Of a stretch of 59,227 bases of DNA, positions 3,543 to 46,003 are shown in pieces. The position numbers and the translations under genes were made by a program. The notes under the pieces were generated by a model, which was not told where the DNA came from, searched no databases, and worked only from the letters and a program-made list of their open reading frames with translations. The DNA is taken from positions 1-59,227 of IMG/VR virus record IMGVR_UViG_3300031577_000001; one strand, 5' to 3'. Every line of letters begins with the position of its first letter. The stretch's first letter is position 1. This stretch comes from a virus (lineage: Duplodnaviria > Caudoviricetes).

Positions 3543-3713
3543 TCTAGCAACTATTTCCCAGCGATACTTCATAAAGTTGCTTTGCGATAATTTAGGTTAT
3601 GATTATGACAATTATTTGAGCGTTGATTTAACAAAACAAGATGCATCGGAAATCATAACCGAATTAAAAAACGAGTGGGCAGGATAATCCCTGCAATAAG
3701 GAGGCGACCGACA

Positions 3714-3926
3714 ATGGTTAAAACACATAAGTTAAGTAAAATTGTAAGGTTTCACAGTCAATCTGAGTATGCGAACGAAATACTATCACCAAGCCGCAAG
3801 AACAATACAATTGTATTGCAAATTGAAAATATTAGTTGTGGAAAATATGATTTTATCGCAGAAGTTATTAATACAAATGATTATGAAAAAGTGGAGGAGG
3901 CGACCGACAATACAAAAACTGACTAA
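3714..3926 (+). CDS. Hypothetical protein
   Basis: AGGAGG RBS before ATG 3714. Confidence 0.5.
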   Translation: MVKTHKLSKIVRFHSQSEYANEILSPSRKNNTIVLQIENISCGKYDFIAEVINTNDYEKVEEATDNTKTD

Positions 3927-4020
3927 CATAATATACAACCTGCTATGCACTCCGCTCGGTTGGTTGGCGCTGATCGGCGCGAGTGTAGCAGTGGCAGTAG
4001 CAATAAAGGGGGCGTGAGGA

Positions 4021-4215
4021 GTGGACAAACAAAGCTATGACTATATAAAAATTGGTGAGCAAGTTATATATAAATACAAGTTTTGCAAGTGGTTACCAGC
4101 AATAAAGATAAAGGGGAAAGTTTGGGCGAAATCAATGGATGGTGATGGAAGTATTAAGTACGGGCTAGTTTTAGATGGTACCCCGACAAATAATAACGTA
4201 GTAAAAATAAGCTAA
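4021..4215 (+). CDS. Hypothetical protein
   Basis: RBS junction duplicated at 4224-4260. Confidence 0.5.
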   Translation: MDKQSYDYIKIGEQVIYKYKFCKWLPAIKIKGKVWAKSMDGDGSIKYGLVLDGTPTNNNVVKIS

Positions 4216-4250
4216 TAACAGGGGCAGTAGCGATAAAGGGGGCGTGAGGA

Positions 4251-4643
4251 ATGGATAAAAATGAGATGTTGGCAATGGAGCCAGGGCGGGAACTTGATAC
4301 TTTAGTGGCTGAAAAAATATTTGGGCTTGAATATATGGAATGTATCGGTTGCTATATTGACAGTAATGGCAATGAACAAAAAATACAACGACACAGTACA
4401 GAAATTGCGGCGGCGTGGGAGATCATTGAGAAAATGTATGAACTTGGTTTTCGATATTGTGTAAATATTCTCGATGATTGGAGATTTGAAAAGCCTACAC
4501 ATCATTGCTGTTTTGCAAAGCTAAAGTCAGACTGTACAGACGGTTTATATATAAAGGACTACGACCATTTCCATGCTTATGGTGATACGGTGCCAGGAGT
4601 AGTATGCAAAGCCGCGCTATTGGTAATGGAGGTTGGCGAATGA
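4251..4643 (+). CDS. Phage ABA-sandwich (BC1872-like) protein
   Basis: GRELD.LVAE.IFG...ST.IAAAWEIIEK...ICKAAL pattern. Confidence 0.75.
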   Translation: MDKNEMLAMEPGRELDTLVAEKIFGLEYMECIGCYIDSNGNEQKIQRHSTEIAAAWEIIEKMYELGFRYCVNILDDWRFEKPTHHCCFAKLKSDCTDGLYIKDYDHFHAYGDTVPGVVCKAALLVMEVGE

Positions 4644-4897
4644 AAATATATGTACAGCCTAATACCAATGCTGGAGTGCATGGTGGAGGAGACAAATCCT
4701 TAATATTTAGAGATTACTTTATAACTATTGGAAAGTCGCCTATTGTCGAGGTAATAAAAACTGAAACGGGGCGTAGCGGTGGATTTTATGGCAGAGAGTG
4801 TAGTGAAGAATTTGGAGAAAAAATAATCAAACTGATCGAAGACGAATTTGCGAGGTTAGATAAGTATTACATCAGATTAGATGAGGCCAAAACATGA
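4640..4897 (+). CDS. Hypothetical protein, tandem paralog A
   Basis: Aligns with 4894-5166 (DYF..GK.P.VEVI.TE.G...RECS.EFGEKI). Confidence 0.7.
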   Translation: MKIYVQPNTNAGVHGGGDKSLIFRDYFITIGKSPIVEVIKTETGRSGGFYGRECSEEFGEKIIKLIEDEFARLDKYYIRLDEAKT

Positions 4898-5166
4898 AAA
4901 TACAAAAAGAACCTGGAACCCAAATTTGTTTAGATGGTAATGGTGATACATGTTTGATGTTTGGCGACTATTTTGTATCTTACGGTAAAACGCCTGTGGT
5001 TGAAGTCATAACCACCGAAGTAGGGCACGGTGTTGGGTTCCGTTTCAGAGAGTGCAGCAAAGAATTTGGAGAAAAGATAATGAAAATGATCGAAGATGAA
5101 GTCAAAAAAATTGATGATGGATACATAGAGAGGATGGTGGAGGTCAGCAATGATAAAGACAAATAG
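4894..5166 (+). CDS. Hypothetical protein, tandem paralog B
   Basis: Paralog of 4640-4897. Confidence 0.7.
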   Translation: MKIQKEPGTQICLDGNGDTCLMFGDYFVSYGKTPVVEVITTEVGHGVGFRFRECSKEFGEKIMKMIEDEVKKIDDGYIERMVEVSNDKDK

Positions 5167-5452
5167 ATGTAAACAAGTACAAAAGGTCGTTCAACATTAT
5201 ATCAGGCGACAAATACCTTTTACTCTTAAAGGAATTAAATTAAAAGTAAGCCGTTCGATAGATTTACGGCAAGAGGATGACGTAATTATTAAAGGTTGCA
5301 GTTTTGAGCCAGCCAACAGTAAAAAAAATAAGAAAACGATTGGAGTTAAGATAACTGATAAGCGAATTAAAAGAAACGAATTTCCACTCTTTATTTTTTC
5401 ACCGAGCCAGTACAAAGAGATGGATTTAGCAAGAAACCAATTTTATAAATAA
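5150..5452 (+). CDS. Basic hypothetical protein
   Basis: GGAGG RBS; ORF track. Confidence 0.5.
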   Translation: MIKTNRCKQVQKVVQHYIRRQIPFTLKGIKLKVSRSIDLRQEDDVIIKGCSFEPANSKKNKKTIGVKITDKRIKRNEFPLFIFSPSQYKEMDLARNQFYK

Positions 5453-5692
5453 GCGATTAGGGGCGGCGTAAAGGAGGCGTTAGAATTGCCTAAACAAACT
5501 TTAACCGAGTATTATAAATTACCGCAGATGGAAAGAGATTTTAGACAGTATGCAAGGCACTTAGAAGAATTAATGCACCCAGAATATAAGTCTTATGAGA
5601 ATTTTGCGAAAGCAATTAATGAGTTTATAAAAGCGAATAAACCAAAATAAGGGGCGGATAATACCGCCCTATTCGTGTTGGGAGGGGTTAAC

Positions 5693-6037
5693 ATGCAAAA
5701 GGTGATTGATGGTGTAAGGGTTACATATACGGATGATATTAGCGACCAGGAGGCTGCGGTATACGCTAATCAGGAGATTGCCGAGTGGAAGGGCCAGCAT
5801 AAACAGATTGACTACATGATGATAAAAATTGATGGCAATGAGGTTGTGATTGAGGCGCATGAGCGGTCACCGATCAGGAGAATAAGGCGAATTACCGGAT
5901 ACTTGAGTGAGGTTAGCAATTTTAATGATGGGAAACGTGCGGAACTTATAGACCGCACCAACCAGGACAACCAGGAATACAACTACCCGTCAGATAGAGA
6001 ACGGTATTTAGAGAGACAAGCATTGCTAGGAGACTGA
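5693..6037 (+). CDS. Stand-alone NrdD-like glycyl-radical domain protein
   Basis: RRITGYL...FNDGKRAE..DR matches the class III RNR C-terminus. Confidence 0.75.
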   Translation: MQKVIDGVRVTYTDDISDQEAAVYANQEIAEWKGQHKQIDYMMIKIDGNEVVIEAHERSPIRRIRRITGYLSEVSNFNDGKRAELIDRTNQDNQEYNYPSDRERYLERQALLGD

Positions 6038-6061
6038 TTGATTTTGTGGGGAGGGGTTAGC

Positions 6062-6544
6062 GTGGTTTTACAGAGAGAAACAGCGTACAAAGAGGAAAAT
6101 AGGCAAGCCGCAAAATGGCTATTGGAATACCCCGAGAGAAGACAAGCTTATATAAATAGAATGAACTCAATCCAGTATTTAGGGGCTACACAATACGATG
6201 GTATGCCTCATGGCACCGATGTTGGAAGGCCGTGTGAGGCTAAAGGGATTAGACTGGCTGACTTGGATATTGACAAGAAATGGATAATGGCAATTGAGGA
6301 TGCAGAGAGAACGCTAGGGCCGAAGAAGTTAGCATTCCTTGATATTAGGAGGCAGGCGGAAAAACAGAAAGCATCAACAGGCGGCAGGCCAGGATGGATG
6401 AATTACACCATGGAAAAGTATGCTGATTGGCAACATAGGCGTTATGGTGGGGATTATGTACCAAGCTACAATACTTTACGTGCATGGTGGGACGAAATAC
6501 TAAATGTTGCTGTAAGGATAGCTATTCGGCGCGGATGCTTATAA
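6062..6544 (+). CDS. RinA/ArpU-like late transcriptional activator
   Basis: YDGMPHGT.VG.P.E motif; last early gene before the late region. Confidence 0.7.
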   Translation: MVLQRETAYKEENRQAAKWLLEYPERRQAYINRMNSIQYLGATQYDGMPHGTDVGRPCEAKGIRLADLDIDKKWIMAIEDAERTLGPKKLAFLDIRRQAEKQKASTGGRPGWMNYTMEKYADWQHRRYGGDYVPSYNTLRAWWDEILNVAVRIAIRRGCL

Positions 6545-6554
6545 AAAATACTTT

Positions 6555-6604
6555 TTGTTTGGCACAAAGGTACGAAAAACCCTGTCATACTAAAGATAGT
6601 AAAA
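6555..6604 (+). promoter_or_regulatory. Putative activator-dependent late promoter
   Basis: Immediately after the RinA-like gene; tgtcatact -10-like element. Confidence 0.4.
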
Positions 6605-6903
6605 CTATGTCTCCGCAATGAGGATAAACTACTGCCGGAATGGTTTTAGCCAGGACAGCACATATTGCACAATAATGTGCCATAAGGCGGCGTTAGTGCT
6701 AGTTAGGCTTTAACCCTGAGGTATCAATGGGTGCCGCCGAGATTATCAGCAGCGACAATTGCGCTGACTAGATATATTGTTGTGGCGACGCCTGAAAGTC
6801 CAACAAACAGGTAGATCGCTGGTAGAATGTACAGCAGCGGCGGAATAATGGCGTAACTACCGCCGCAACGATAATAACCATGTCGCTCGCACCGGAGATA
6901 TGG
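6605..6903 (+). ncRNA. Putative ~300-nt multi-branched structured RNA of unknown family
   Basis: Closing stem 6605-6615/6893-6903 with six internal hairpins and G-U pairs; no plus-strand ORF. Confidence 0.6.
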
Positions 6904-6959
6904 TGTCATAGATTGTTCATTACTTTTTACCTCCAGGGCCTTCGGGCCTGTACATGACA

Positions 6960-6989
6960 GCCTCCTGATTCCAGGGGGCTTTTATATTT
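6960..6989 (+). terminator. Rho-independent terminator
   Basis: gcctcctg-attc-cagggggc followed by tttt. Confidence 0.7.
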
Positions 6990-7128
6990 GAGGTGATAAT
7001 TGGCCTGTTGTTTGAGACTCAGGTTTTTATTGATCCTTTTTCTTTGCCTTTTTAGGGGAGGTGGTTGCTAAAATCAACTCATGATTTGCCACATTTAATA
7101 TTGTCTAAGCTGAGAGGGGAAATGTAGA

Positions 7129-8517
7129 ATGAGTGTTTTATATGAAACATTTATGGAAGGTGCATTAATACTAGCGACTCCAACGAAAATTACTAGTGCA
7201 TCCGGGGTATTAACTTTGACATCTGCCAGCAATACTTTTATTGCATCTGGTACGGAGGATATTACTAGTATTACGGGTAATGGGCAAGGCATCTATGTGA
7301 TTATCTGGAATACTGCACGGAAATTGACTTATAATTCTTCTAAACTGTTGCTGATTGGAAAAGCAGATCGAACCACGGCAGTTGGGGATGTAGGGGTGTA
7401 TCAAGATTGCATGGGAGTTTTTACTGAACTCTTGTATCAGCCGATATCTGGCAAGGTGTCAGAAGCAGATTCCGCGACAACGGCTGATGCTTGCTCTGGC
7501 AATGCGGCGACGGCTACTAAATGGGCAACAGCCAGGACCTTGAGCTACACCGGGGATGCTACAGGCTCGATGTCGGTCGATGGTTCGGCAGAGACCAGCG
7601 CCGCTTTGACTCTTGCTTCTTCTGGCGTAACGGCCGGTACATACACCTCGGTTACGGTGGATGCGAAAGGACGGGTCACTGCCGGGACGAACCCGACAAG
7701 CGAGGCTATTAGTATAACTGGGAATGCGGCTACGGCTACGTTGGCTACTACGGCGACAACTTGTTCGGGTAATGCGGCAACCGCGACAAAGTTGGCGACG
7801 GCAAGAACTATAACTTTGGCTGGTGATGTTACAGGAAGTGGTACTTTCGATGGGTCCACGAATCTTTCTATAACAACAACCGGTGTAGAAGCGGCAAAAT
7901 TGACCACTGCTAGAACAATCTCTATAACCGGAGATGCTAGCGGCAGTGCAAGTTTTGACGGTTCGGAAAATAAAAGTTTGGAACTAACTCTCGGCAGTTC
8001 TGGTGTAACTGCAGGAACTTATAATAGTGTTACTGTAGATTCTAAGGGAAGGGTAACATCTGGAACGAATACTTCAGTTGCGAGTGTACCGACAGGTGCA
8101 GTACAAGCTTTTGCAATGTCTACTATACCGTCTGGTTGGCTGGCATGTGATGGCTCGAAAGTATCGAGAACCGATTATGCTGATCTGTATGCGCTGATAG
8201 GTACGACCTTTGGGGAAGGCGATGGCAGTACAACGTTTGCATTGCCTGCGATACAGGATAATTTTATTCTTGGATTGGGCACTACCTACGCAACGTTGGG
8301 GGCAACTGGTGGGGAAAGCACGCATACGCTGACCACTGATGAAATGCCTGCACATACTCACACTTATACGACTAAAGCGAGTGCTCAGCCTCAATCGGGG
8401 TCTGACACTGATTGTTGGTATGGTACCGCTACAGGAGCTACTGGCAGTGCTGGTAGTGGTGATGCTCACAACAACATGCCGCCTTATATCGTGCTTAAAT
8501 ATTGCATCAAATATTAA
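7129..8517 (+). CDS. Tail-fibre-like protein with GNAATATKLATARTI repeats and C-terminal tail-collar domain
   Basis: Fibre repeats; P.GWL.CDG..VSR..YA.L...IGT and HNNMPPY collar motifs. Confidence 0.85.
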   Translation: MSVLYETFMEGALILATPTKITSASGVLTLTSASNTFIASGTEDITSITGNGQGIYVIIWNTARKLTYNSSKLLLIGKADRTTAVGDVGVYQDCMGVFTELLYQPISGKVSEADSATTADACSGNAATATKWATARTLSYTGDATGSMSVDGSAETSAALTLASSGVTAGTYTSVTVDAKGRVTAGTNPTSEAISITGNAATATLATTATTCSGNAATATKLATARTITLAGDVTGSGTFDGSTNLSITTTGVEAAKLTTARTISITGDASGSASFDGSENKSLELTLGSSGVTAGTYNSVTVDSKGRVTSGTNTSVASVPTGAVQAFAMSTIPSGWLACDGSKVSRTDYADLYALIGTTFGEGDGSTTFALPAIQDNFILGLGTTYATLGATGGESTHTLTTDEMPAHTHTYTTKASAQPQSGSDTDCWYGTATGATGSAGSGDAHNNMPPYIVLKYCIKY

Positions 8518-8528
8518 GATCAATAAAC

Positions 8529-8577
8529 TAGCCAAAGCAAAGAGAGCCGGATTATTCGGCTCTCTTTGCTTTGGCTA
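8529..8577. terminator. 21-bp perfect inverted repeat (probable terminator)
   Basis: tagccaaagcaaagagagccg / cggctctctttgctttggcta. Confidence 0.7.
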
Positions 8578-8641
8578 TTAACTTTGAATATAACAGCATG
8601 ACTGTTTAAATATATTTATATATACCAAGGAGGCGAGAGCC

Positions 8642-8830
8642 ATGCCAATAGTTAACTGTAGTAAAACCGATTGCCTAAACCACGGCAAAGATGTCTGCAC
8701 GGCTAATAGAATAAAACTGTTTAAAGGTAAATGCGACGGCTATATTACCAGCGCTGGTGGCATGAAACTTGTTGCCCCTCCGATGGAACGAAGGCATGGC
8801 AGCTTGCAGAATATGAGAACTAAACCATAA
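8642..8830 (+). CDS. Small Cys protein (DUF1540-like)
   Basis: VNC...DC..H....C.A..I......C pattern; AGGAGG RBS. Confidence 0.6.
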   Translation: MPIVNCSKTDCLNHGKDVCTANRIKLFKGKCDGYITSAGGMKLVAPPMERRHGSLQNMRTKP

Positions 8831-8885
8831 TGCAAGTCGCACTTAGGAGCCTGCTCAAAAATGAGCAAACTCAACGGGGAAATAG

Positions 8886-9236
8886 GTGATTGCTATGCTA
8901 GTTAAACCGCATCGAATTGTAGATAAAACAGGTATGAAAAAAGTAAAAGCCATTGACCATTGCGAACGATGTGGACGCGAGGCCAACGGCTTTTTTAATT
9001 TAGAAGTCGCCCATGTTATAGGCAAGGGTGCGGGTGGGCCTGACATTAAGGAGAATTGCTTGAAACTGTGTGGCCCGGCTTGTATGAGTGCAGGGTGTCA
9101 TGGTGCAGATCACCGGGGCAAGATTGGTAATGATGAACTATTCGGTTTGATCGCAGAGCGTGAGGGAAAGACACTGGATGAGATAAAGGACATAGTACAC
9201 AGGGCTTGGAGGTTTGGCGAGTATGAAGCAACTTGA
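8886..9236 (+). CDS. HNH-like endonuclease
   Basis: CERCG, AHVIG.GAGG.D..EN...LC...CH...H; upstream of terminase. Confidence 0.75.
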   Translation: MIAMLVKPHRIVDKTGMKKVKAIDHCERCGREANGFFNLEVAHVIGKGAGGPDIKENCLKLCGPACMSAGCHGADHRGKIGNDELFGLIAEREGKTLDEIKDIVHRAWRFGEYEAT

Positions 9237-9357
9237 CGATTTACTAAACTCCGCTTTCGATAAGCACCCCAAGGCAATGGATTTAGTATGTTTTTATATT
9301 GCAATGGCTTTAAGTTGCTTCATACTTGTGCTTTGGCAATATGTTAAAGGAGCGTAA

Positions 9358-9723
9358 ATGATGGAGATAGAGACATTACCACCTATTCAACTACAAAAGT
9401 TATGTATGAAACTATCGGAGCGTATAGAACAACTGTGCAATGTGGTGGGCGGCTATGAAGTAGATGTAAGCGCCAAGGCTAAGTTATACAAGCGAGCGCA
9501 AGCACAGGCAGCGGTAATGGTTGACAGGAAGATACCGCCAAGCTTAGCTAAGATGGTTATAGAAGCTGAACCAAATGTAATGGCGGCGGCTGATGAATTA
9601 GAACAGGCAGAGGCTACGCTTATATTAGGGAAAGCTGAGCTAGCAGGGGTTGAGGCCAAATATCAGGCTGTGAAAAAGATTATTGATTTAAAAGTATGCG
9701 AGATAAGAAATTTTAGAGGTTAG
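9358..9723 (+). CDS. Helical hypothetical protein
   Basis: AAGGAG RBS; ORF track. Confidence 0.6.
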   Translation: MMEIETLPPIQLQKLCMKLSERIEQLCNVVGGYEVDVSAKAKLYKRAQAQAAVMVDRKIPPSLAKMVIEAEPNVMAAADELEQAEATLILGKAELAGVEAKYQAVKKIIDLKVCEIRNFRG

Positions 9724-9781
9724 GCGATAATGAAAGTTTGCTAGATGCGGATACTTTGCAGTAGATAGTAGGTGGTGGTGA

Positions 9782-10339
9782 TTGGCACGGCATGATTGGG
9801 TAAAACTAAAAAGCAAATACCTTGCAGGATTATATAAGGACCTAAAAGAGTTTGCCACTAAAGAAAAAATTAATTATCAAGTGGTGCGAAATAACTCTAA
9901 AGGTTGGAACGAAGAAAAGTTACAGTACAATGACATGAAAGTTACAAAAATTACACAGCGAACTATTGATAAAGTAGTTGAAAAAGAAGCAGACCGAAAC
10001 GCCAAGCATTTAGCGATTCAAGATTTAGCGCTTGATGCTATAGAGGAATATCTAAAAAATAGGCATTTTAAAAAGCATGTAATAAAGTATAAGTATTATG
10101 ATAGCGAGGGGAAAGCGGATCACGAAGAACTAAAAAACGTCGAGTTAGAAGTAATGGATTCACGCGCGTTTTCAAATGTCGTTGCTTCATTGGAGAAGTT
10201 ACAAAAAGGTCAGCGGCTTGCTTTGAATATGGATAAAGACAATAATGAAGCAAATGATCTTGTAGACGATGGCTTTATAGATGCACTAAAAAATGAAGCG
10301 CTTGATATATGGGCAGATGAAGGTGAACAGCATGAGTAA
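9782..10339 (+). CDS. terS: Terminase small subunit
   Basis: N-terminal DW..LK..Y HTH; C-terminal DDGFIDALK; position before terL. Confidence 0.75.
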   Translation: MARHDWVKLKSKYLAGLYKDLKEFATKEKINYQVVRNNSKGWNEEKLQYNDMKVTKITQRTIDKVVEKEADRNAKHLAIQDLALDAIEEYLKNRHFKKHVIKYKYYDSEGKADHEELKNVELEVMDSRAFSNVVASLEKLQKGQRLALNMDKDNNEANDLVDDGFIDALKNEALDIWADEGEQHE

Positions 10340-10407
10340 ATGGATGTGCTTCGTTTCAGGACTATATACTGGAGTCGCAATACTAATAATATTGTTAATG
10401 ATTTATA

Positions 10408-11742
10408 ATGGCTGAGATCGTTAAAAAGGTTACCAAAGCAGTGCTTTTCTTTGTTGCCTTTTCACTCAAGCAAAAAAAGATACTTACATGGTGGACCGAG
10501 GCAAGCCCATATAAAGATTGCAATGGGATAATATGCGATGGTGCAATCAGAGCCGGGAAAACAGTTCCCATGGCTCTTTCTTTTGTATTTTGGGCAATGG
10601 ATACCTTTGATGGCCATAACTTCGGCATGTGCGGCAAGTCGATAGGCTCTTTCCAACGTAATGTGTGGACATGGCTTAAACCTGCGCTAATTATTCGCGG
10701 TTATAGGATAAAAGAAAAGCGTACCGGTGAGGACAAGCACACCGAAATAGCATTTAGAGGAAAAATAAATAAGTTTTATATATTCGGCGGCAAGGATGAA
10801 CGAAGCCAGGATTTAATACAAGGTATTACACTAGCAGGAATACTTTTCGATGAAGTGGCACTCATGCCAGAATCATTCGTCAATCAAGGGACTGGACGTT
10901 GCTCTGTAAAAGGTGCAAAATATTGGTTTAACTGTAATCCTGACGGGCCAATGCATTGGTTTAAAGTCAATTGGCTAGACAAAATTATAGATAAAAAATT
11001 ATTCCACTTACATTTTGAGATGGACGATAATCCTAGCCTAGAAGAAGAAATTAAGCACAAGTATAAAACTATGTACGCCGGAGTATTCTTCCAGCGCTTT
11101 ATTCTCGGATTATGGGTTATGGCTCAAGGAGCTATATATAAAGATTCTTGGTCTGACGAAAATCTTTTTGATGATAGTGATATGGAACCTGGAATATTAA
11201 ATAATCCGTCATATAGACGCTATATTGTAATTGACTACGGTACGGCAAATGCAACGGTATTTTTGGATTGCATAGATGACGGGACGATTATATGGGTGTT
11301 TGATGAATATTATCACAGCGGCCATAAAACGGGCGTAACTAAATCAGATAAAGAATATACGGATGACTTGCTAACTTTTATTGATAGCAAGGGTGAAAGT
11401 TCGCTTAAGCCAATAATTATTATCGATCCATCAGCAGCCAGCTTTAAGGCCGAAATAAGAAGCCGCCATTTTAGATTGCGTGACACAATAGAAACAGTTA
11501 ATGCTGATCACGAAGTATTGGATGGTATTCGCATGGTGTCGAGCATGTTATTACGGAATTTATTGCGCATACATCGTAAAAAGTGCCCTAATACAAAAAA
11601 CGAATTATTATCATATGTGTGGGATGATAAAGCTATCAATAAGGGATTGAAAGAGCGCCCAATTAAGATAAATGACCATAGTTGCGATTGTTGTAGGTAT
11701 CTAGTGAAGACGGTAGTATCTCCTAGAAGATTAACACGCTAA
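10408..11742 (+). CDS. terL: Terminase large subunit (PBSX family)
   Basis: GAIRAGKT Walker A; FDEV Walker B; IDYG, IDPSA, NDH.CD nuclease motifs. Confidence 0.95.
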   Translation: MAEIVKKVTKAVLFFVAFSLKQKKILTWWTEASPYKDCNGIICDGAIRAGKTVPMALSFVFWAMDTFDGHNFGMCGKSIGSFQRNVWTWLKPALIIRGYRIKEKRTGEDKHTEIAFRGKINKFYIFGGKDERSQDLIQGITLAGILFDEVALMPESFVNQGTGRCSVKGAKYWFNCNPDGPMHWFKVNWLDKIIDKKLFHLHFEMDDNPSLEEEIKHKYKTMYAGVFFQRFILGLWVMAQGAIYKDSWSDENLFDDSDMEPGILNNPSYRRYIVIDYGTANATVFLDCIDDGTIIWVFDEYYHSGHKTGVTKSDKEYTDDLLTFIDSKGESSLKPIIIIDPSAASFKAEIRSRHFRLRDTIETVNADHEVLDGIRMVSSMLLRNLLRIHRKKCPNTKNELLSYVWDDKAINKGLKERPIKINDHSCDCCRYLVKTVVSPRRLTR

Positions 11743-11746
11743 TGCC

Positions 11747-12322
11747 TTATAGATTTAGATTCATATAAACGCCGTCGAGATCATCCTGGGTAATGCCAAT
11801 ATATCGAAGAGTGGTCGAAGGTGTTGAGTGATTAAATAACTTTTGTATAACCTCAATTGAAACCCCGGATTTATAAGCGTGATAGCCGAATGTTTTTCGC
11901 AGGGTATGCGTTCCAATCTTATCTGTTATTCCAATCTCCCTGGCAGCATTATTTATGATTTTATACGCCTGATCCCGTTGAAGGGGAGCCTTACCATTGT
12001 TCTGCTTCTTTGATAAAAAGAATGGTTCATCAAATGAAAATTTTCTTGTTTTTAGGTATTCAATAATGGCTTTTCTGGCAACGTCACTAATCGGAAAATC
12101 TTTCATCTTGTTTGTTTTTATCTCACGAAGAGTAATACGGTCACGAATTTTACCCTTTTCATCAACTACATCGTGAATTTTTAAATTCAGTAAATCGCTA
12201 ATGCGTAAACCAGAGTTTATTCCAAGCGTAAATAGACAATAGTCTCTAACGTTTTTAGCTAGGAGAATTTTCTTAATCGTATTGATTGTTTTTTTATCGC
12301 GAATCGGTTGGACAAATTCCAC
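11747..12322 (-). CDS. Small tyrosine recombinase (resolvase type)
   Basis: GLRISD, HTLRKTF, FNH, TLRYIG catalytic motifs; no arm-binding domain. Confidence 0.92.
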   Translation of the reverse strand: MEFVQPIRDKKTINTIKKILLAKNVRDYCLFTLGINSGLRISDLLNLKIHDVVDEKGKIRDRITLREIKTNKMKDFPISDVARKAIIEYLKTRKFSFDEPFFLSKKQNNGKAPLQRDQAYKIINNAAREIGITDKIGTHTLRKTFGYHAYKSGVSIEVIQKLFNHSTPSTTLRYIGITQDDLDGVYMNLNL

Positions 12323-12339
12323 TTATAACACCCCTCACA

Positions 12340-12491
12340 TAATCATACATAATTTAATTATAACGCCTGTTATGTATGATGTAAAGAAATAGCATAGAAA
12401 TGTTCATTAACAAAAACAACCGCCAACCCTTATATAACAAGGATTCCCGGTTGTATTGCAAATCATACACAACTTTATTATGTATGATTAT
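12340..12491. other. Recombination site A (accessory inverted repeat plus dif/lox-like core)
   Basis: atcatacataa-N17-ttatgtatgat at 12342-12380; aatcatacacaa-cttta-ttatgtatgatt at 12461-12489. Confidence 0.8.
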
Positions 12492-12515
12492 ATCAGCAAA
12501 GGGAGGAGGAATATT

Positions 12516-13919
12516 ATGGCTAAGAAAAACCGTAGCCGACAACAAGACATTGAACAGCGCAGGCAACATGTTCGAGCAACAGATAGTTTTTCTAATCCCA
12601 TGGCACGAATCGGATTTGGCACTCCTTCCATGCTTGAAGGTACGGAATATCCAATCACACGGCTAACTCGCAATTACACCCTTCTTCAATCCTTATACCG
12701 ATCCCATTGGATTGCGCGCCGGATCATCGATACTCCCGCGGAAGACATGTGTAAAAATTGGGTTACATATAAGTCGCAAATTGCACCGGATTTGATTGAT
12801 AGATTGACGAAGCTAGAGCGCAAGACTCGTGTAAAGACTCGGTTCATTGAAGGGCTAAAGTGGGGTAGGCTATTCGGTGGCGCTGCTGGGGTTATTATGA
12901 TTGACGGCCACGAAGGAATACTTGATCAACCGCTTGATTATGACATGATTATGCCGGGTTCATTTTGCGGTTTAATGATCCGCGACCGATGGTCCGGGGT
13001 ATCGCCCGTGGGACAATTAATTACCGATCATCGCGACCCTGATTATGGGTTACCAGAGTATTATACTGTTACCACTGATGCATCAGAGACATTCAAGATT
13101 CATCATTCGCGCATATTGCGTTTTATAGGTAGAGATGTGCCAATGTGGGAGAAACAGGCAGAGGTTTACTGGGGCGTATCCGAGGTTGAACATATTTATG
13201 ATGAATTGAAAAAGCGTGATAATACCTCTTGGAACATTGCTAATTTGGTATTCCGGGCTTATTTGGTTTCTATGAAGATGGCTGACCTGGGGCAGGTACT
13301 CTCGATCGGGGACAGAGAAGCACAAAAAGAAATATATAATGTTGTTCAAGCCCAAAACTGGCTTATGTCTAATTTTGGAATACTACTAATGGACAAAGAT
13401 GATGATTTTGACACAAAGGCTTATTCATTCAGCGGACTGGCTGAGATTCAAGAAAGCTTTATGTACGACATTGCCGGTGCTGCTGAAATTCCTGTAACAA
13501 AATTATACGGAAGATCACCGGCGGGAATGAATGCCACCGGCGAATCAGATATGCAAAACTATTATGATAATCTTTCCATGAAGCAAGAGGCTGACGTAGG
13601 ACCACTACTTGATAAACTCATGCCCATTATGGCAATATCTGAATTTGGGTACTTGCCGGATGATCTTGATTATACTTTTAATCCTGTGGATTCACCGACA
13701 GCCAATAAAAAGGCTGAACTTGGTGAAAAACTATCTGAAACAGTTGGTAAGGCTTTTGACCGTGGCTTGATAAGCCAAAAGGTAGCATTAAAAGAATATC
13801 GGCAGCAATCTGATATTACCGGCCTTTTCACCAATATCACTGATGAGGACATTGAGAAGGCAGATGATTATACTCAATTGCCTGATGCAGAACCACGCGA
13901 TGACGAGGTATTGATATGA
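12516..13919 (+). CDS. Portal protein (DUF1073 family)
   Basis: LYRSHWIARRIID.PAEDM, RLFGGA, IHHSR, IPVTKLYG.SP.G.NATGESD..NYYD. Confidence 0.92.
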   Translation: MAKKNRSRQQDIEQRRQHVRATDSFSNPMARIGFGTPSMLEGTEYPITRLTRNYTLLQSLYRSHWIARRIIDTPAEDMCKNWVTYKSQIAPDLIDRLTKLERKTRVKTRFIEGLKWGRLFGGAAGVIMIDGHEGILDQPLDYDMIMPGSFCGLMIRDRWSGVSPVGQLITDHRDPDYGLPEYYTVTTDASETFKIHHSRILRFIGRDVPMWEKQAEVYWGVSEVEHIYDELKKRDNTSWNIANLVFRAYLVSMKMADLGQVLSIGDREAQKEIYNVVQAQNWLMSNFGILLMDKDDDFDTKAYSFSGLAEIQESFMYDIAGAAEIPVTKLYGRSPAGMNATGESDMQNYYDNLSMKQEADVGPLLDKLMPIMAISEFGYLPDDLDYTFNPVDSPTANKKAELGEKLSETVGKAFDRGLISQKVALKEYRQQSDITGLFTNITDEDIEKADDYTQLPDAEPRDDEVLI

Positions 13920-14095
13920 CAATATGCGATATGTGTAGGCGTGATTGCAACTCTAATTGTATTATTCCTTTTTGCCTTACTCGTAGTTTTGAAATGAATG
14001 ATATATGTGCCAATTGTAATAATTTAATAAAACTTATGAATGGAATGTGCGCAACAAAATGTTTTGAGTTTAGTGCATATGATCCTAAAAGGTGA
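13916..14095 (+). CDS. 59-aa Cys-rich protein (MTICDMCRRDC...)
   Basis: ATGA overlap with portal stop; GAGG RBS; 9 Cys; translated by hand. Confidence 0.5.
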   Translation: MTICDMCRRDCNSNCIIPFCLTRSFEMNDICANCNNLIKLMNGMCATKCFEFSAYDPKR

Positions 14096-14099
14096 TTGT

Positions 14100-14903
14100 A
14101 TGGCAATAAATAAATGGGAAGGCCCTCACAGAATTGAACTTGAATTCCAGAGGGCTTTATTTCGTTTTCTGATGCGAGTGTTTAATATTCCATTCGATGA
14201 AGGTAGCTCTTATATATGGAACTGGAATGATGCACTTAATCAATTAGCCTACACAATGGCAGAAAAGATGGTCACACAAACTCTGCATAGCACCGCTAAA
14301 TCATGGCGAGAAGCCGCCGCAAATAGTTCCAATGGTAGGCGAATATATGAAATGCTTCACAATGAGCTACAATGGCCTACGGGATTTAAGGTGCTAGAGT
14401 TAATTGAACAGAACGCACAACTAATCCGGTCATTGCCTCAAGATATGGCACAAGAAATAAATAAGAAGATTTTCGATGCCACGATGTCTGGTAATCGTCC
14501 TGAAGCTATATTAAAAGAACTACTACCTGATATGGCGCATAATAAAGCCCAGCTAATAGCTAGGACTGAATCAGCAAAAGCACAAACTGCATTAATTCAA
14601 GTAAGAGCAGAAAATTTAGGACTAAATCATTATGTATGGCGAACGGCTACAGACCAGCGCGTACGATCATCGCATAAACACATGCAAGGAATTATTTGCA
14701 GTTTTGATGATCCGCCAGCACCCGAACAATTAATAGGGATAAAATCAACACTGGGCCATTACCCACCGGGAGGTTGCCCAAATTGCAGATGTTTCCCGGA
14801 AATTATTGTTGATATTGACGATATTGGATGGCCTCACGAGTGTTATGTAAACGGAAATGTAAGGACACTGGGTAAACGCCAATTCGAGCGTATAAGCGGA
14901 TAA
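14100..14903 (+). CDS. Head morphogenesis protein (SPP1 gp7 / Mu F-like)
   Basis: LIARTE, W.T..D.RVR.SH, NCRC motifs. Confidence 0.92.
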   Translation: MAINKWEGPHRIELEFQRALFRFLMRVFNIPFDEGSSYIWNWNDALNQLAYTMAEKMVTQTLHSTAKSWREAAANSSNGRRIYEMLHNELQWPTGFKVLELIEQNAQLIRSLPQDMAQEINKKIFDATMSGNRPEAILKELLPDMAHNKAQLIARTESAKAQTALIQVRAENLGLNHYVWRTATDQRVRSSHKHMQGIICSFDDPPAPEQLIGIKSTLGHYPPGGCPNCRCFPEIIVDIDDIGWPHECYVNGNVRTLGKRQFERISG

Positions 14904-14940
14904 AAATATTTTAGGCAGAAACATAAGGACAACATAAATT

Positions 14941-14976
14941 AAACGGCTTGTAGGCTAACTGCGAGGCCGTTTTTTT
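14941..14976 (+). terminator. Rho-independent terminator
   Basis: acggcttgtag...ctgcgaggccgt followed by T-tract. Confidence 0.7.
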
Positions 14977-15008
14977 GTTAGCAGATAATATTTCGCGGAG
15001 GGGATAGA

Positions 15009-15341
15009 ATGAGGCGCGAATTGAGGGCGTATCTTGAAGCTGAACTGAGGAACTATAATCAGAACAAAACTGATTTGGACAGTATGATGCTGATGACTAG
15101 CAAACGGTTGCTTCGAGTCGAACAGATAATTACAGCAATAGAAACTGTAGTTGAGTCATTGCCGCCAGAAAAACATCAACTAGTAGAACTAAAATATTGG
15201 GCGCGACCGCAGATGTTGAATAGTGAGGGTATAGCATCACAGCTACATTGTGATCGCCGGACTGTTTACCGATGGATTGACGGAATACTATCAGATATTG
15301 CTACTGAATTAGGCGAGCATGAAATGAAAGGCGTTGGTTAA
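15009..15341 (+). CDS. Second RinA/ArpU-like regulator (sigma region-4-like HTH)
   Basis: Y.EAELRNY...LVELKYW...IA.QLHCDRRTVYRW. Confidence 0.8.
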   Translation: MRRELRAYLEAELRNYNQNKTDLDSMMLMTSKRLLRVEQIITAIETVVESLPPEKHQLVELKYWARPQMLNSEGIASQLHCDRRTVYRWIDGILSDIATELGEHEMKGVG

Positions 15342-15346
15342 ATAGC

Positions 15347-15625
15347 ATGAGTATATTTAAACAAAATAAAAAACTGCCAGTACAACCAACTAGTAATAAA
15401 ACAAAACTAGAACCATTAAAAAAAATAGATAATACAGATCAAGACAAAATTATGGTTGATCTTTTACAACAATCAGAACCGCCCAACCAAAAGCCGGAGC
15501 ATCTTAAAAAGCGGCTTGAAGATATTATATCAAACCCTTATACTTCAACGGCTGCTTCTTTAATGGCTATAGAAATTTTGCTTAAATATTTATTAAAGCC
15601 CTGCTATCTAAGCGTAACAGCGTAG
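15347..15625 (+). CDS. Hypothetical protein
   Basis: ORF track. Confidence 0.45.
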   Translation: MSIFKQNKKLPVQPTSNKTKLEPLKKIDNTDQDKIMVDLLQQSEPPNQKPEHLKKRLEDIISNPYTSTAASLMAIEILLKYLLKPCYLSVTA

Positions 15626-15675
15626 AATACAGAGTTTTTTATTTAGTATAAAAATAAAAGGAGTGATTTATAAAC

Positions 15676-16245
15676 ATGGTTGATGAAAATGTACAAATTT
15701 TGGTAGGATCATTAGCGGTAAGCGCTACAAATCCATTGCCAACACTAGCAAAAGAACAGACAAAAGGAACATATGCTATTGCCGCGGTAGGAGTAACCCC
15801 GGCAGCAACACCAACTGATGTCGTGACCGTATATGGTTCGGCGACTAAAACAGTTCGCATTAAGCAGGTTATTGTAAACGGTCTAGCTACAACCGCCGGA
15901 ACTATGGACGTATCACTTGTAAAGCGGACAGCAGCAAACACGGCAGGCACTTCTACGGCCCCAACTATTGCACAGTTTGATTCTACTGATGCCGCGGCTA
16001 CGGCTACGGCAGCGCAGTACAGCGTTAATCCTACCTCTGTAGGCGCAGGCGTGGCTCTGGCGACTAAAAAGCTTAACATGGGAGTTGCTGGCTCAACTGG
16101 AACAATTGAATTTAATTTTGCCAATAGAAATGATAAGGCATTGATTTTACGCGGCACAGCGCAGGGGCTGGCGATTAACTTTAACGGTGGTACTGTACCT
16201 ACTGGCGGGGCGCTTAGTTATTCAGTAGAGTGGGAAGAAGAATAG
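15676..16245 (+). CDS. Ala/Thr-rich beta protein, possibly virion-associated
   Basis: AAGGAGTG RBS; composition resembles structural proteins. Confidence 0.65.
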   Translation: MVDENVQILVGSLAVSATNPLPTLAKEQTKGTYAIAAVGVTPAATPTDVVTVYGSATKTVRIKQVIVNGLATTAGTMDVSLVKRTAANTAGTSTAPTIAQFDSTDAAATATAAQYSVNPTSVGAGVALATKKLNMGVAGSTGTIEFNFANRNDKALILRGTAQGLAINFNGGTVPTGGALSYSVEWEEE

Positions 16246-16296
16246 AATAGACGACTATAGGCCGTTATTTTTATGCCCGAAGGGTGGTGATTTATT

Positions 16297-16485
16297 ATGC
16301 ATGGGAAAGAAAGCCCAATGGCTAAGCGAACCCAACGTACTCCAATGAAAGCATATGGGGTGCATGTTGCTGCTACACCAAATAAAGTGACATCTACGGT
16401 AGAGCCGGTTGCTACTCCTACAGTGGAAACGGCGGTTACTCCGGCTATTAGCACACCTGTAGCAGAGGCAACTCCTGTTGGGTAA
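16297..16485 (+). CDS. Small Pro/Thr/Val-rich protein
   Basis: RBS; ORF track. Confidence 0.45.
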   Translation: MHGKESPMAKRTQRTPMKAYGVHVAATPNKVTSTVEPVATPTVETAVTPAISTPVAEATPVG

Positions 16486-16505
16486 GTGAAGCAGAAAAAT
16501 AGTCA

Positions 16506-16642
16506 TATCATACATAAGTAGGTTGTGTATGATTTAGCTATAGCCTGGAACCCTTAATATTACTGAGTTTATTTCAAGATAGTTGTTATAGGTAAAATAT
16601 TAATCATACATAATGATATTTAATTGTTAATATGTATGATTA
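16506..16642. other. Recombination site B (inverted relative to site A)
   Basis: atcatacataa-gtagg-ttgtgtatgatt core at 16507-16534; accessory inverted repeat taatcatacata...tatgtatgatta at 16601-16642. Confidence 0.8.
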
Positions 16643-16662
16643 GTTTTTAAGTAGGTGATGCA

Positions 16663-17979
16663 ATGGCAAGGGCTTACTATGGTTCGAGAATTAGCCCGAA
16701 CCAGACTAAGACACCCGAGGGCTATCTAGTGTGCCACAACGTGCCAATTGGCAAAGCTGGTTGGCTGGAATATATGCCCCATGAACTGGGAGCCTTGAAT
16801 ATACAAGGTAATGATCCGGTTCAAGTAGATCGAAGAGAAGATGAAGTATTCAACCCGGCGGCAATAGCCTCATTTGAAGGAAAACCAGTAACCGACGAAC
16901 ATCCTCCTGATTGGATTTCACCCTCTAACGTTAATGCCTATATGAAGGGCGTTACGACTAACGTTAGGCGGGGAACCGATTCGGAGGATGATTTGTTACT
17001 GGCTGATTTAATTATCTACGATCCTACGCTAATTAGTGAGATCCAAACTGGTAAGCGTGAGGTATCAGGTGGATATGATTACGACTGCGAACCTTTAGAG
17101 GATGGTAAATACGCCCAAAAAAATATTAGAGGCAATCATGTTGCAATTGTAAGGTCGGGCAGAGCTGGCCCTAGAGTCGCAGTCAAAGACTCAAAACCAA
17201 AAAACGAAAGGGGAACCAAAATGAAAAGTAATTCCAGAGAAACAATCTGGGGTAAGATGTTCAAGGCATACGCACAAGATGCAGAACCCGAAGAACTTGC
17301 CGAAGCATCTAAACTTATGCATGAGAAAAAAGAGGGCGAAGACGCAGAACCGCCGTGTGTAAAACCCGTTGCCGGTAAAGATGGAGAGCCACCGCAAGAT
17401 CACTCAGAAGCAGCTGAGGGCGCTATTTTTAAAGAAATTCTTGAGGCTATCAAAGTAATGCAAGCGGATATTGCAGAGCTGAAGTCAGCTAAAGCCGCGC
17501 CGGAACCAGCCAAAGACGCTCTTACCTCGCTAGAAGAAGAACTTGGCGGCGGTGAACAACCTTACGCCGAAGGGGAAATAGAAGGAAATGTTCATGAAGT
17601 AGATCCGCTTACCAATGATGAAAGCGTTACCATTGATCCGGAGTTATTAGCCGCCGATGGAGAGCCGCAAGTAATAAAGTTGCCGAAGACTTCCGCTGTA
17701 GATAATGCCGCGGCTGTAAGAATGGCAATCAAAGCCGCTAAACCTGTGGTCGGCGCGATCAAAGACCCGGCTGACCGCAAAAGGGCACAGGATGCATTGG
17801 CTAAAAGCTTTAGAGAACAACTAAAAGCTGCTCCTTCTGATGCATATAAAAAAATGGCTACTCCTCCTAAACCATCGGCTAAAGCTCAAGATTCCAAGTC
17901 CATTAAGGAAGAAGAAGAACGAGCTATAGGCGAAAACTGGAAGAAAAAATACAATCCTCATTATAAAGAAAATAAATAA
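16663..17979 (+). CDS. DUF2213 prohead protease/scaffold
   Basis: TPEGYL.C, SFEGKPVT.EHP, REVS.GY, GNHVAIV..GRAG. Confidence 0.9.
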   Translation: MARAYYGSRISPNQTKTPEGYLVCHNVPIGKAGWLEYMPHELGALNIQGNDPVQVDRREDEVFNPAAIASFEGKPVTDEHPPDWISPSNVNAYMKGVTTNVRRGTDSEDDLLLADLIIYDPTLISEIQTGKREVSGGYDYDCEPLEDGKYAQKNIRGNHVAIVRSGRAGPRVAVKDSKPKNERGTKMKSNSRETIWGKMFKAYAQDAEPEELAEASKLMHEKKEGEDAEPPCVKPVAGKDGEPPQDHSEAAEGAIFKEILEAIKVMQADIAELKSAKAAPEPAKDALTSLEEELGGGEQPYAEGEIEGNVHEVDPLTNDESVTIDPELLAADGEPQVIKLPKTSAVDNAAAVRMAIKAAKPVVGAIKDPADRKRAQDALAKSFREQLKAAPSDAYKKMATPPKPSAKAQDSKSIKEEEERAIGENWKKKYNPHYKENK

Positions 17980-37067: not shown

Positions 37068-37985
37068 TTATTTATTTATTACCCAATTTATAGTATTAGC
37101 AATACCTAACGCACTCGAAAAGGGGTTTTTATCTAACAGACGTTGATTATTGCTATTTATTGAAAAGTTACTGTCAACACACAATTTTTTTATACTATTC
37201 GCATTTGGCGATTTAAGTCCAATTGAATTACACAAAGAAATAATACTTGCAATTGAATTAATGAATAATAATGGTATTGGGATCAGTTTACAGTCTTGTA
37301 TATCTCTTTTAATCAATAAACAAATATCTTTAAAATTTAAACTTTTATTATCTTTAGCAATAAGTATTTGATTATTAAATTGTTGAAATTTTATTATTTC
37401 GCTGATTATAAAGCTAAGATTGCGGACATATAAAATATCTTTTTTAGTTTTCCCATTGTTAACAAGTGGGAAAAAGCCTTTTCGCATTTGGCTAATCATC
37501 TTATAGAAGTTGCCCTTAATATCGTTTTCTCCATATACAACAACAGGGCGAATTATAGTATAAGGAATATTGTGTTGTGAACAAAAACGAACGATATGAT
37601 TCTCGGCCTCTTTTTTGGAAGATGCGTAATAATCATTTTCGTCATTATTAGTTACTGCAACCGTACTCAAATATATAAAACGTTTTGCATTTAATTTCAG
37701 TGCTGTATTTAAAATGTTATCCGTTGCCTGTACGTTGTTACGATAAAATAATGGCTTTGTTTCATCATTTTGTACAATATGAGCCTGACCTGCCGCATGA
37801 ATAACAACATCAATATTACTACAAGGGATTTTTATTTCATCTAATAAATCATTTTCAACATAATTAACATCGTTAATCTTATTTGAAAAGTGCCTGCTTA
37901 AAGCATAAATCGTATTGCCATTTACTAACTGCCGAACTATATCTTGACCAATAAACCCACTTGCACCTGTTACTAATATATCCAC
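37068..37985 (-). CDS. NAD-dependent epimerase/dehydratase (moron)
   Basis: TGASGFIG, YASSK, RP.VVYG; AT-rich; opposite strand. Confidence 0.9.
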   Translation of the reverse strand: MDILVTGASGFIGQDIVRQLVNGNTIYALSRHFSNKINDVNYVENDLLDEIKIPCSNIDVVIHAAGQAHIVQNDETKPLFYRNNVQATDNILNTALKLNAKRFIYLSTVAVTNNDENDYYASSKKEAENHIVRFCSQHNIPYTIIRPVVVYGENDIKGNFYKMISQMRKGFFPLVNNGKTKKDILYVRNLSFIISEIIKFQQFNNQILIAKDNKSLNFKDICLLIKRDIQDCKLIPIPLLFINSIASIISLCNSIGLKSPNANSIKKLCVDSNFSINSNNQRLLDKNPFSSALGIANTINWVINK

Positions 37986-44179: not shown

Positions 44180-44210
44180 TTGGTTTTTCGCTCCATATAT
44201 TATTTTACTG

Positions 44211-44513
44211 AGTATCGTTTTTGCAATAATAACCTGATTCACAGTCAAAATACGAGTACCGTTTTTGCAATAGTTGGACCGTTTTCGACCTATATTCTGC
44301 TGTAGAGGCTTACCAACCTGGTAATGTCCTGGTTTTATTGGCATAGGTACGTGACCGTTTTAGCATAAAACCAGTATCGTTTTTGCAATAGTTAATAGAG
44401 AATAAAGAAGCTTACAGTATGATTTCCCTATCAACTATAAGCTTCTTTACTCTCTATTTATTTAGTATCGTTTCTGCAATATTAAAATGCCGCTTGAGTA
44501 TCGTTTTTGCAAT
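44211..44513 (+). repeat. Five 17-bp iterons downstream of rep (incA-like copy control)
   Basis: AGTATCGTTTTTGCAAT at 44211, 44255, 44373, 44464, 44497. Confidence 0.9.
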
Positions 44514-45696: not shown

Positions 45697-45738
45697 ATTA
45701 TGCACCTCTAGCAAGATATTACCAAAGCAGATTAATTA

Positions 45739-46003
45739 TTGCAAGTTTGTATTTTTTGCAACATATTTTTCGAGTATCGTTTTTGCAATTTTAACTTTAC
45801 TGAGTATCGTTTTTGCAATAATACAGTATCGTTTTTGCAATTTTATTTTAGCTCTGAGTATCGTTTCTGCAATAGTTGAGTATCGTTTTTGCAATAGTTA
45901 GCATCTCGTAAAGCATTGATATTACTGGCTTCGTGGCATGTCCTAAAAATATGTTTTAAAAATACTGTTTTAAAAATAACAACAAAAAGCAGCTGTTGTT
46001 GTT
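45739..46003 (+). repeat. Plasmid origin: five phased iterons plus AT-rich repeats
   Basis: Iterons at 45773, 45803, 45825, 45857, 45879 (spacing 30/22/32/22); taaaaata/tgtttt repeats 45944-46003. Confidence 0.88.

Follow-up and report, generated by a model that had tools for sequence, protein, structure and literature searches.

TnpI, the tyrosine recombinase of the transposons Tn4430 and Tn5401, binds a compound site, the IRS, made of a core (IR1-IR2) that is the site of exchange and of further accessory motifs. These motifs impose selectivity for resolution and disfavour exchange when two sites are inverted; transcriptional regulation is a further activity of TnpI (both statements PMC2847244, PMC7157771). 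Only three members of a 190-member library of Tn3 elements are described as encoding TnpI (PMC7157771). The TnpI/IRS system of Tn4430 and the Cre/loxP system of phage P1 have the same job, the resolution of multimers. Here we describe a comparable locus in the virus record IMGVR_UViG_3300031577_000001 (Duplodnaviria; Caudoviricetes), which was analysed over its whole length of 59,227 bp (hereafter the window). The record is complete according to CheckV (100%) and has a G+C content of 41.7%. The gene of a small tyrosine recombinase, P0001, lies there between the genes of the large terminase (terL) and of the portal, antisense to the late genes, and is accompanied by two compound sites, A and B, 4 kb apart. 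We propose, with a probability of roughly 60%, that the gene and site A are a captured resolution module that resolves multimers of the plasmid prophage by recombination of A with A and represses itself, and that B is an orphan remnant.

A small tyrosine recombinase and its site travel as a module

The module spans 742 bp (11747-12488) and comprises the recombinase gene, an accessory repeat, a terminator hairpin and a core:

11747-12322, minus strand: gene of the tyrosine recombinase P0001 (191 residues, GTG start; PF00589, 9e-29, residues 13-175; phrog_216, 2.7e-63)
12342-12380: accessory inverted repeat A (half-sites 12342-12352 and 12370-12380, 17-bp gap)
12342-12385, minus strand: accessory repeat A together with the recombinase promoter that it overlaps (-35 TTTACA at 12385-12380, -10 TATAAT at 12362-12357)
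12409-12455, minus strand: terminator-like hairpin with a T-run, between core A and the promoter (-20.7 kcal/mol, z -3.8)
12462-12488: core site A, ATCATACACAA-CTTTA-TTATGTATGAT, the presumed crossover site

P0001 belongs to the tyrosine recombinase superfamily, as indicated by the match to PF00589 and the intact R-K-H-R-H-Y set. Residues R40, K69, K72, H139, R142, H165 and Y174 are invariant in an alignment with seven homologues and two canonical TnpI. An earlier examination of the letters and open reading frames (ORFs) of this DNA, hereafter the sequence-only reading, had recognised, between terL and portal, an inserted tyrosine recombinase of the resolvase type; the family matches and the gene order agree with it. 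The protein consists of the catalytic domain only. It is 28% and 26% identical to the TnpI of 284 and 306 residues of pBMB126, within the catalytic domain only, and canonical TnpI proteins carry about 100-120 N-terminal residues that are absent from P0001. Its scores lie below the NCBIfam equivalog cut-offs for Xer proteins (XerA 102 against 220 bits, XerD 81 against 329.6, XerS 54.8 against 267) and for the Fim-type invertases (PRK09871, 63.5 bits against 222, E=1.9e-17). The gene converges with terL, the two stop codons being 4 bp apart. The wider family to which P0001 belongs is large, with tblastn matches in 3,174 records of plasmids and 301 of phages. Our literature search found no paper treating the 191-residue type as a Tn3 or plasmid resolvase. 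This family of small resolvase modules is widespread but little described in print.

The half-site pattern ATCATACAYAA, allowing at most one mismatch, has 11 matches in the window. Shuffled sequences had a mean of 3.63 matches (standard deviation 1.83, maximum 9), and none of the 100 shuffles reached 11. Eight of the matches (seven exact, one with one mismatch) are grouped in two clusters, with starts at 12342, 12370, 12462 and 12478 in A and at 16507, 16523, 16603 and 16630 in B. Each cluster is composed of a core, with 11-bp inverted arms and a 5-bp spacer, and of an accessory inverted repeat of the same half-sites placed 16-17 bp apart. The compound sites extend over 12342-12488 (A) and 16507-16640 (B). 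Their structure is real and beyond chance. From this anatomy we infer that P0001 binds the half-sites and catalyses exchange at the cores.

The gene and site A correspond to a cointegrate-resolution unit of Tn3-family transposons that also occurs on plasmids. The recombinase of a Pelosinus contig (L074) is 89.5% identical to P0001, and the core next to it has the same arms and the same spacer as A. DNA homology with this contig (80.4% over 744 bp) begins at the stop codon of the recombinase (11747), and its other limit is the outer edge of core A (12488). The Sporomusa plasmid pSSP59, which encodes a type IV secretion system, is 70.4% identical to positions 11748-12489 of the window, and has the same boundaries; its module is not accompanied by a transposase. 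Of the remaining window proteins, 51 were tested, and none matched L072-L078. The sequence-only reading had pointed to mosaic boundaries at the cores as evidence to be sought; there is one at core A, in both L074 and pSSP59, but it is the edge of the resolvase module and not that of a portal cassette.

A scan for the core pattern returned 7 loci in public genomes and 21 in metagenomes. In L074, L134 and L078, the core is placed between the recombinase and a divergent transposase (DDE_Tnp_Tn3 and DUF4158, E-values from 1e-79 to 1e-112). Inverted Tn3-type end motifs at positions 3625 and 10540 of L134 enclose the transposase, the site, the recombinase and cargo of the blaI/blaR1 type. This Tn3-family transposon of roughly 7 kb (about 3600-10560) is found on a 162-kb metagenome contig, and its transposase frame is split into two ORFs. 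Its recombinase is 88% identical to P0001, and beyond it are the blaI- and blaR1-type genes and one more ORF. We detected neither a tnpA remnant in the window (best tblastn E-value 0.084) nor a Tn3-type end motif near A or B.

The layout of the module is kept among its relatives. Among 16 homologue loci that are at least 52% identical, 12 have a core 129-175 bp upstream of the start codon, mostly at 164-166 bp. The sequence of the outer arm varies by lineage, and the accessory half-sites covary with the core arms, as expected of protein-binding sites. Hairpins equivalent to that of A occur in L074 (-18, z -4.4) and pSSP59 (-26, z -6.5). The recombinase promoter (TTTACA-17-TATAAT) matches the sigma-70 consensus at 11 of 12 positions, and it also lies over the accessory repeat in L074, L134 and L139. 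This overlap, kept in relatives, points to autoregulation, for which accessory repeat A would be the presumed operator. The spacers are hypervariable, with 21 different ones in 30 cores from 29 sources, which fits a crossover region where only the identity between partners matters. A more distant homologue (48% identical, locus L030) has a layout unlike that of this subfamily, with two elements at 6951-6977 and 7792-7818: a core only 51 bp before the gene and a second, everted half-site pair about 260 bp after it.

A second site with another spacer and spacing

Site B is composed of the following elements:

16507-16533: core site B, ATCATACATAA-GTAGG-TTGTGTATGAT (spacer CCTAC on the reverse complement), inverted relative to A
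16539-16555, minus strand: motif AAGGGTTCCAGGCTATA, matching one hairpin arm of A (12439-12455)
16603-16640: accessory inverted repeat B (half-sites 16603-16613 and 16630-16640, the latter with one mismatch; 16-bp gap)

The two loci are mirror-oriented and their arms are identical, and the spacers (CTTTA in A, CCTAC in B) differ at three of five positions. The sequence-only reading had described this arrangement, and the half-site scan, the shuffles and the sequence all confirm it. Its description of two full sites with a common central motif needs some correction. Both have a core and an accessory repeat, but B is not a full copy of A, as a stable hairpin exists only in A (folding z-scores in B are +0.9 and +1.7). 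The motif common to A and B is indeed there, but it is one arm of the terminator-like hairpin of A.

Site B has the geometry of other members of the family. The distance between the core and the accessory repeat (start to start) is 96 bp in B and in L135, L141, L142 and L150 (class II loci), and 108 bp in A, L074, L134 and L139. B aligns to L135 with single-base gaps only, whereas longer gaps are needed to align it to A. Outside the half-sites, 63 of 90 positions of B are identical to L135 and 56 of 90 to A. The half-sites themselves are identical at 42 of 44 positions in the comparison with L135 and at 43 of 44 with A, and at 41-43 of 44 with each relative compared. They fit the pattern ATCATACAYAA at 43 of 44 positions, while the remaining positions of the locus are 62-70% identical to any relative. 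The arm polarity of B relative to its accessory repeat is that of the other members. We ruled out that B is a recent duplicate of A, given the spacing of 96 against 108 bp, the alignment gaps and the missing hairpin.

Tn3-type end sequences are found near the site in class II metagenome loci; for example, the left terminal repeat and the core of L135 are 30 bp apart. L150 (reverse strand, about 516-823) is a 308-bp miniature element with 38-bp Tn3-type GGGG...TAAG repeats and a TTGTT duplication, and contains only the site. Small-recombinase sites with nearby Tn3-type end sequences were seen in L135 (2960-3230), L141, L142 and L147. We also considered that B might be a decayed Tn3-derived miniature element, and rejected it because neither 38-bp terminal repeats nor a 5-bp duplication surround B.

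The presence of two cores in one source is unusual: among 29 core-bearing sources, only this phage has it. The spacer of B was found in none of the other 28 sources, and a blastn search of 16246-16662 against plasmids gave no match. The single match of the core pattern in viral contigs (L071, on the same contig as L151) was discarded as a chance match; it falls within coding sequence of an AT-rich contig of 205 kb, and there is no recombinase in its vicinity. In L111, the homologue of the 189-residue ORF is about 40 bp before the DUF2213 gene by tblastn coordinates, and the sequence gives 24 nt from stop to ATG. Relative to this locus, the window has additional DNA, its interval measuring 417 bp and being composed of a 62-residue ORF (16297-16485) and site B. 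B thus appears to be an orphan site of a sister lineage, with the same half-sites, another spacer and another spacing, and no gene; it is most likely the remnant of a second captured module.

Probable multimer resolution in a plasmid-type prophage

The genome is that of a plasmid-type prophage. A Rep_3 initiator gene is found at 44521-45714 (minus strand), with nine copies of an iteron-like repeat of about 19 bp (core CGTTTTTGCAATA) on both sides of it (44209-44510 and 45772-45890), which are probably the iterons of a plasmid origin. ParA and an RHH partner are also encoded, as is an FtsK/SpoIIIE-like protein. The six-frame search of the phage gave a single match to PF00589, and none to serine recombinases (PF00239). 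The sequence-only reading had taken the phage for a plasmid-type prophage, in good agreement with these genes. The plasmid lifestyle, the sole recombinase and the kinship of the module together make multimer resolution the most likely function of P0001.

In this scenario, the phage-plasmid would have acquired the resolvase module between terL and portal. The lysogen would make the recombinase from its own autoregulated promoter, and the enzyme would join A with A on sister copies, converting plasmid-prophage multimers to monomers, and most likely repress its own promoter. Late transcription from terL, running antisense through the recombinase gene, may lower its expression in lytic growth. B should also be bound by this recombinase, and could support exchange with another B. 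We do not expect exchange between A and B, given that their overlap regions are unlike and that the compound sites face in opposite directions; the expectation of the sequence-only reading that the spacer mismatch blocks this exchange should hold under the canonical mechanism. This orthogonality is probably the reason why both sites are tolerated around essential genes.

Several points weigh against this proposal. The antisense position within the late operon is unusual for plasmid-maintenance genes. The phrog_216 family is also found in integrating phages, where multimer resolution meets no obvious need. P0001 is only 26-28% identical to TnpI and has no N-terminal domain, and the rules established for TnpI may not transfer to it. 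As for B, it takes up all of an intergenic gap of 177 bp directly in front of an essential gene, and it has no Tn3 ends, which leaves no visible route of entry. Its near-perfect half-sites and the way it fills the gap suggest constraint, and thus some function rather than a mere relic, although this constraint may predate the capture. We consider the interpretation of B as a leftover that is no longer needed somewhat likelier than each alternative, with a regulatory use in second place.

Regulation is a less probable alternative. The recombinase, made constitutively and bound to A and B immediately upstream of the start codons of portal and of the DUF2213 gene, would silence the head genes in the lysogen as a repressor, as a roadblock or through an A-B loop; in the lytic phase, copy number and antisense transcription through the gene would titrate it away. 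Each locus ends shortly ahead of the start codon of an essential head gene, as the sequence-only reading had remarked: the portal ATG (12516) is 27 bp past the end of core A, and the DUF2213 ATG (16663) is 22 bp past the end of accessory repeat B. The preservation of the half-sites of B while the rest of the locus diverges, and the overlap between accessory repeat A and the promoter, would both be explained. There is also a precedent in TnpI of Tn5401, which is reported to modulate the expression of tnpI and tnpA and to have an extra binding site near each transposon end (PMC7157771). Yet B has no convincing sigma-70 promoter (the best on the plus strand matches 9 of 12 positions), temperate phages normally keep their late genes silent without needing such help, and none of the relatives has this arrangement. 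A promoter in B resembling that of the recombinase was rejected, since B has only poor matches where the -35 and -10 of A would correspond.

The two sites might alternatively circularise the injected DNA, which we regard as quite improbable. They would lie in the terminal redundancy of a genome packaged by the headful mechanism and, being 4 kb apart, would serve successive headfuls, with their different spacers preventing inversion. In P1, loxP is near pac, within the terminal redundancy, and circularises the injected DNA. P1 is listed with headful packaging and Cre (PMC8026635, Table 1). Both sites of our phage are 2-6.5 kb downstream of the terminase genes, its portal and MuF types are those of SPP1-like phages, and the recombinase promoter is close to the sigma-70 consensus; B, with its well-formed core and usual arm polarity, looks fit for recombination with another B. 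Against this, a weak HNH match (E=0.001) upstream of the terminase genes hints at cos-type packaging, the record has no terminal repeat, and two sites are found in none of the relatives.

The segment between the sites

The sites bracket the following genes, which are given with their neighbours:

10408-11742, plus strand: terL, large terminase (PF03237, 3.5e-10; phrog_2, 2.9e-42)
12516-13919, plus strand: portal (ATG at 12516, ribosome-binding site GGGAGGAGG; PF06381, 1.3e-116)
between portal and the Mu F/gp7-like gene: ORF of 59 residues
14040-14903, plus strand: minor head protein similar to Mu F and SPP1 gp7 (PF04233, Phage_Mu_F, 7.9e-18)
14947-14975: terminator-like hairpin after the Mu F/gp7-like gene (terminator scan)
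15009-15341, plus strand: RinA-family/sigma region-4-like regulator (TIGR01636, 5.2e-13; phrog_36, 1.8e-16)
15347-15625, 15676-16245 and 16297-16485, plus strand: three small ORFs without family matches
16663-17979, plus strand: DUF2213 head protease/scaffold-like gene, the first after site B (PF09979, 1.6e-47; phrog_16985, 7e-101, full length)

The genes named between the sites in the sequence-only reading were recovered by family matches and gene order: portal, the gp7-like gene, the RinA-family regulator, the 59-residue ORF and the three small ORFs. A cement protein and then the major capsid protein are encoded downstream of the DUF2213 gene.

That reading had also proposed that the portal module is exchanged between phages as a cassette, and here our results did not follow it. 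Recombination of A with A and of B with B, involving a co-resident element, would swap the portal-MuF-RinA segment. This is the geometry of engineered heterospecific lox exchange, L074 is a foreign element with the exact spacer of A, the homology breaks exactly at core A, and the literature documents plasmid modules bounded by XerC/D-like sites and site-mediated fusion and resolution of plasmids (PMC5790767). We nevertheless consider such an exchange very unlikely. The homology break at core A simply marks where the resolvase module ends, and a partner with the spacer of B is missing from the 28 other sources. We analysed 54 loci with relatives of the portal, of which 45 hold both terL and portal, within about 400 bp of each other in 44 cases; the terL-portal gap reaches 1.25 kb in L126. 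None of the 54 loci has the recombinase, and none of their 628,708 bases shows a core-like site, although this is a weak test as the relatives are distant (at most 62% amino acid identity).

The identity profiles did not separate the segment from its flanks either. Portal identity correlates with that of the cement protein outside the segment (rho=0.74) and not with that of MuF inside it (-0.23), and terL correlates with DUF2213 (0.82); at 40-68% amino acid identity this too is a weak test. The bracketed genes are hence not set apart from the flanking ones. The interval between MuF and DUF2213 is variable among the portal-relative loci. Close phage relatives were not found by megablast of 10400-17000 against phage records. 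The best match of the recombinase in viral contigs has 63% identity; that of the portal has 62% in viral contigs, 62% in plasmids, and 59% in 15 genomes of the family of the L074 host and 401 of its class. Site B is absent from every relative found, none of which is close (best portal match 62% amino acid identity). Recurrence of a site-bounded mobile module in other backbones was seen neither in the 54 distant portal-relative loci nor in the 29 core sources.

The inverted orientation of the sites would also allow a switch, in which rare recombination of A with B would invert the 4-kb portal segment and thereby stop or start the production of virions. The arms are identical, the FimB/FimE invertases are among the small tyrosine recombinases with only a catalytic domain (as reflected in the PRK09871 match), and segments between inverted res-bearing miniature elements are described in both orientations (PMC13367494). 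However, three of the five spacer positions are unequal, P0001 scores far below the cut-off of the invertase model (63.5 against 222 bits), and the accessory motifs of TnpI are reported to suppress recombination between inverted sites (PMC2847244). We regard this switch as highly improbable. We found no evidence for either inversion or exchange of a portal cassette, two of the functions offered by the sequence-only reading; its third, repression of head genes by the recombinase, is possible but likewise unsupported.

It is unlikely that B is a working second target. The two orthogonal lox-like sites around portal-MuF-RinA would then be a natural landing pad, or the enzyme bound to them would clamp the two head-gene blocks specifically in lysogeny. 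A landing pad would allow co-resident elements whose spacer matches (transposons, miniature elements, plasmids or phages) to dock at either of the sites or to swap the segment. If B works in this way, the variety of spacers, 21 in 30 cores, would specify by a kind of address which elements may recombine with each other.

Other features of the genome

The match of the RinA-family regulator to TIGR01636 has 49.3 bits, above the cut-off of 31.9. This late-gene regulator is not encoded upstream of the terminase genes but inside the head module, behind the hairpin at 14947-14975. Given this placement, the head genes may be transcribed in two blocks. A lead concerning the late-gene activator LlgA was dropped, as LlgA is assigned to the Ltr family and is not a recombinase (PMC7397523).

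A protein of 462 residues with a tail-collar domain and fibre repeats is encoded at 7129-8517, upstream of the HNH-like and terminase genes and far from the tail module (about 21-37 kb). A nucleotide-sugar epimerase-like gene (37068-37985) and an acyltransferase_3 (O-acetyltransferase-like) gene (42054-43160) are found on the minus strand beside the lysis region; they are possibly cargo genes (morons) modifying surface polysaccharides. The ORF at 54815-55417, which encodes a phrog_7713/phrog_923 protein, contains about 18 tandem 15-bp units (GCC[GT]ATCTCAGTGGT-like) at 54912-55190, and these encode a five-residue protein repeat.

Comparison with known systems

The FimB/FimE invertases have about 190-200 residues and only the catalytic domain, like P0001, and show a weak NCBIfam similarity to it. 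Fim switches have identical inverted repeats around a short promoter segment. The locus of our phage is not a switch of this type, since P0001 stays below the cut-off of the invertase model (63.5 against 222 bits) and the spacers CTTTA and CCTAC are unequal, differing at three of five positions.

The pdif modules of Acinetobacter plasmids also have several sites in alternating orientation that bracket gene modules, and some pairs of them are described as recombining (PMC5790767). They differ in using the Xer proteins of the host and in recurring in many plasmids, whereas our phage encodes its own enzyme, and the segment between its sites did not turn up in any other context. Miniature elements bearing res sites, and inversion between inverted copies of them, have been described as well (PMC13367494). 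Site B resembles them in that it matches the internal site of class II loci, of which L150 is a 308-bp element; the examples in that account have serine-resolvase sites, and B has no terminal repeats or duplication.

The closest resemblance in architecture is with TnpI/IRS of Tn4430 and Tn5401. There, too, the recombinase is encoded beside a compound site, with an inverted-repeat core and further binding motifs near the promoter of the gene, and the closest homologues of the module of the window are beside Tn3-family transposases. The differences concern both the protein and the site. P0001 has 191 residues and no N-terminal domain, while TnpI has 284 or 306 residues and 26-28% identity to it. 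The accessory motifs of the window are an inverted pair 108 bp from the core, with a terminator hairpin between them and the core, whereas those of TnpI/IRS are direct repeats. The transposase and the transposon ends present in the L074, L134 and L078 loci are missing from the window. The locus therefore has the compound site of TnpI/IRS systems, but P0001 is not a two-domain TnpI and the module is not part of a Tn3 transposon.

In Cre/loxP of P1, likewise, a single tyrosine recombinase acts on a simple core site, and the phage persists as a plasmid (PMC8026635, Table 1). The one site of P1 compares with two in the phage described here, whose spacers differ. Accessory motifs are absent from loxP, and Cre has two domains. 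With its two sites, the sole case in 29 sources, this phage provides a simple way to tell whether orphan sites act as regulators or docking points or are relics. The 21 spacers in 30 cores suggest that the enzyme tolerates any spacer; in that case, these modules would form a natural set of orthogonal lox-like systems served by a very small enzyme, and a possible tool. Tn3-family transposons, plasmids and phages thus have in common a compact unit of recombinase and site, found here in a phage that lives as a plasmid.

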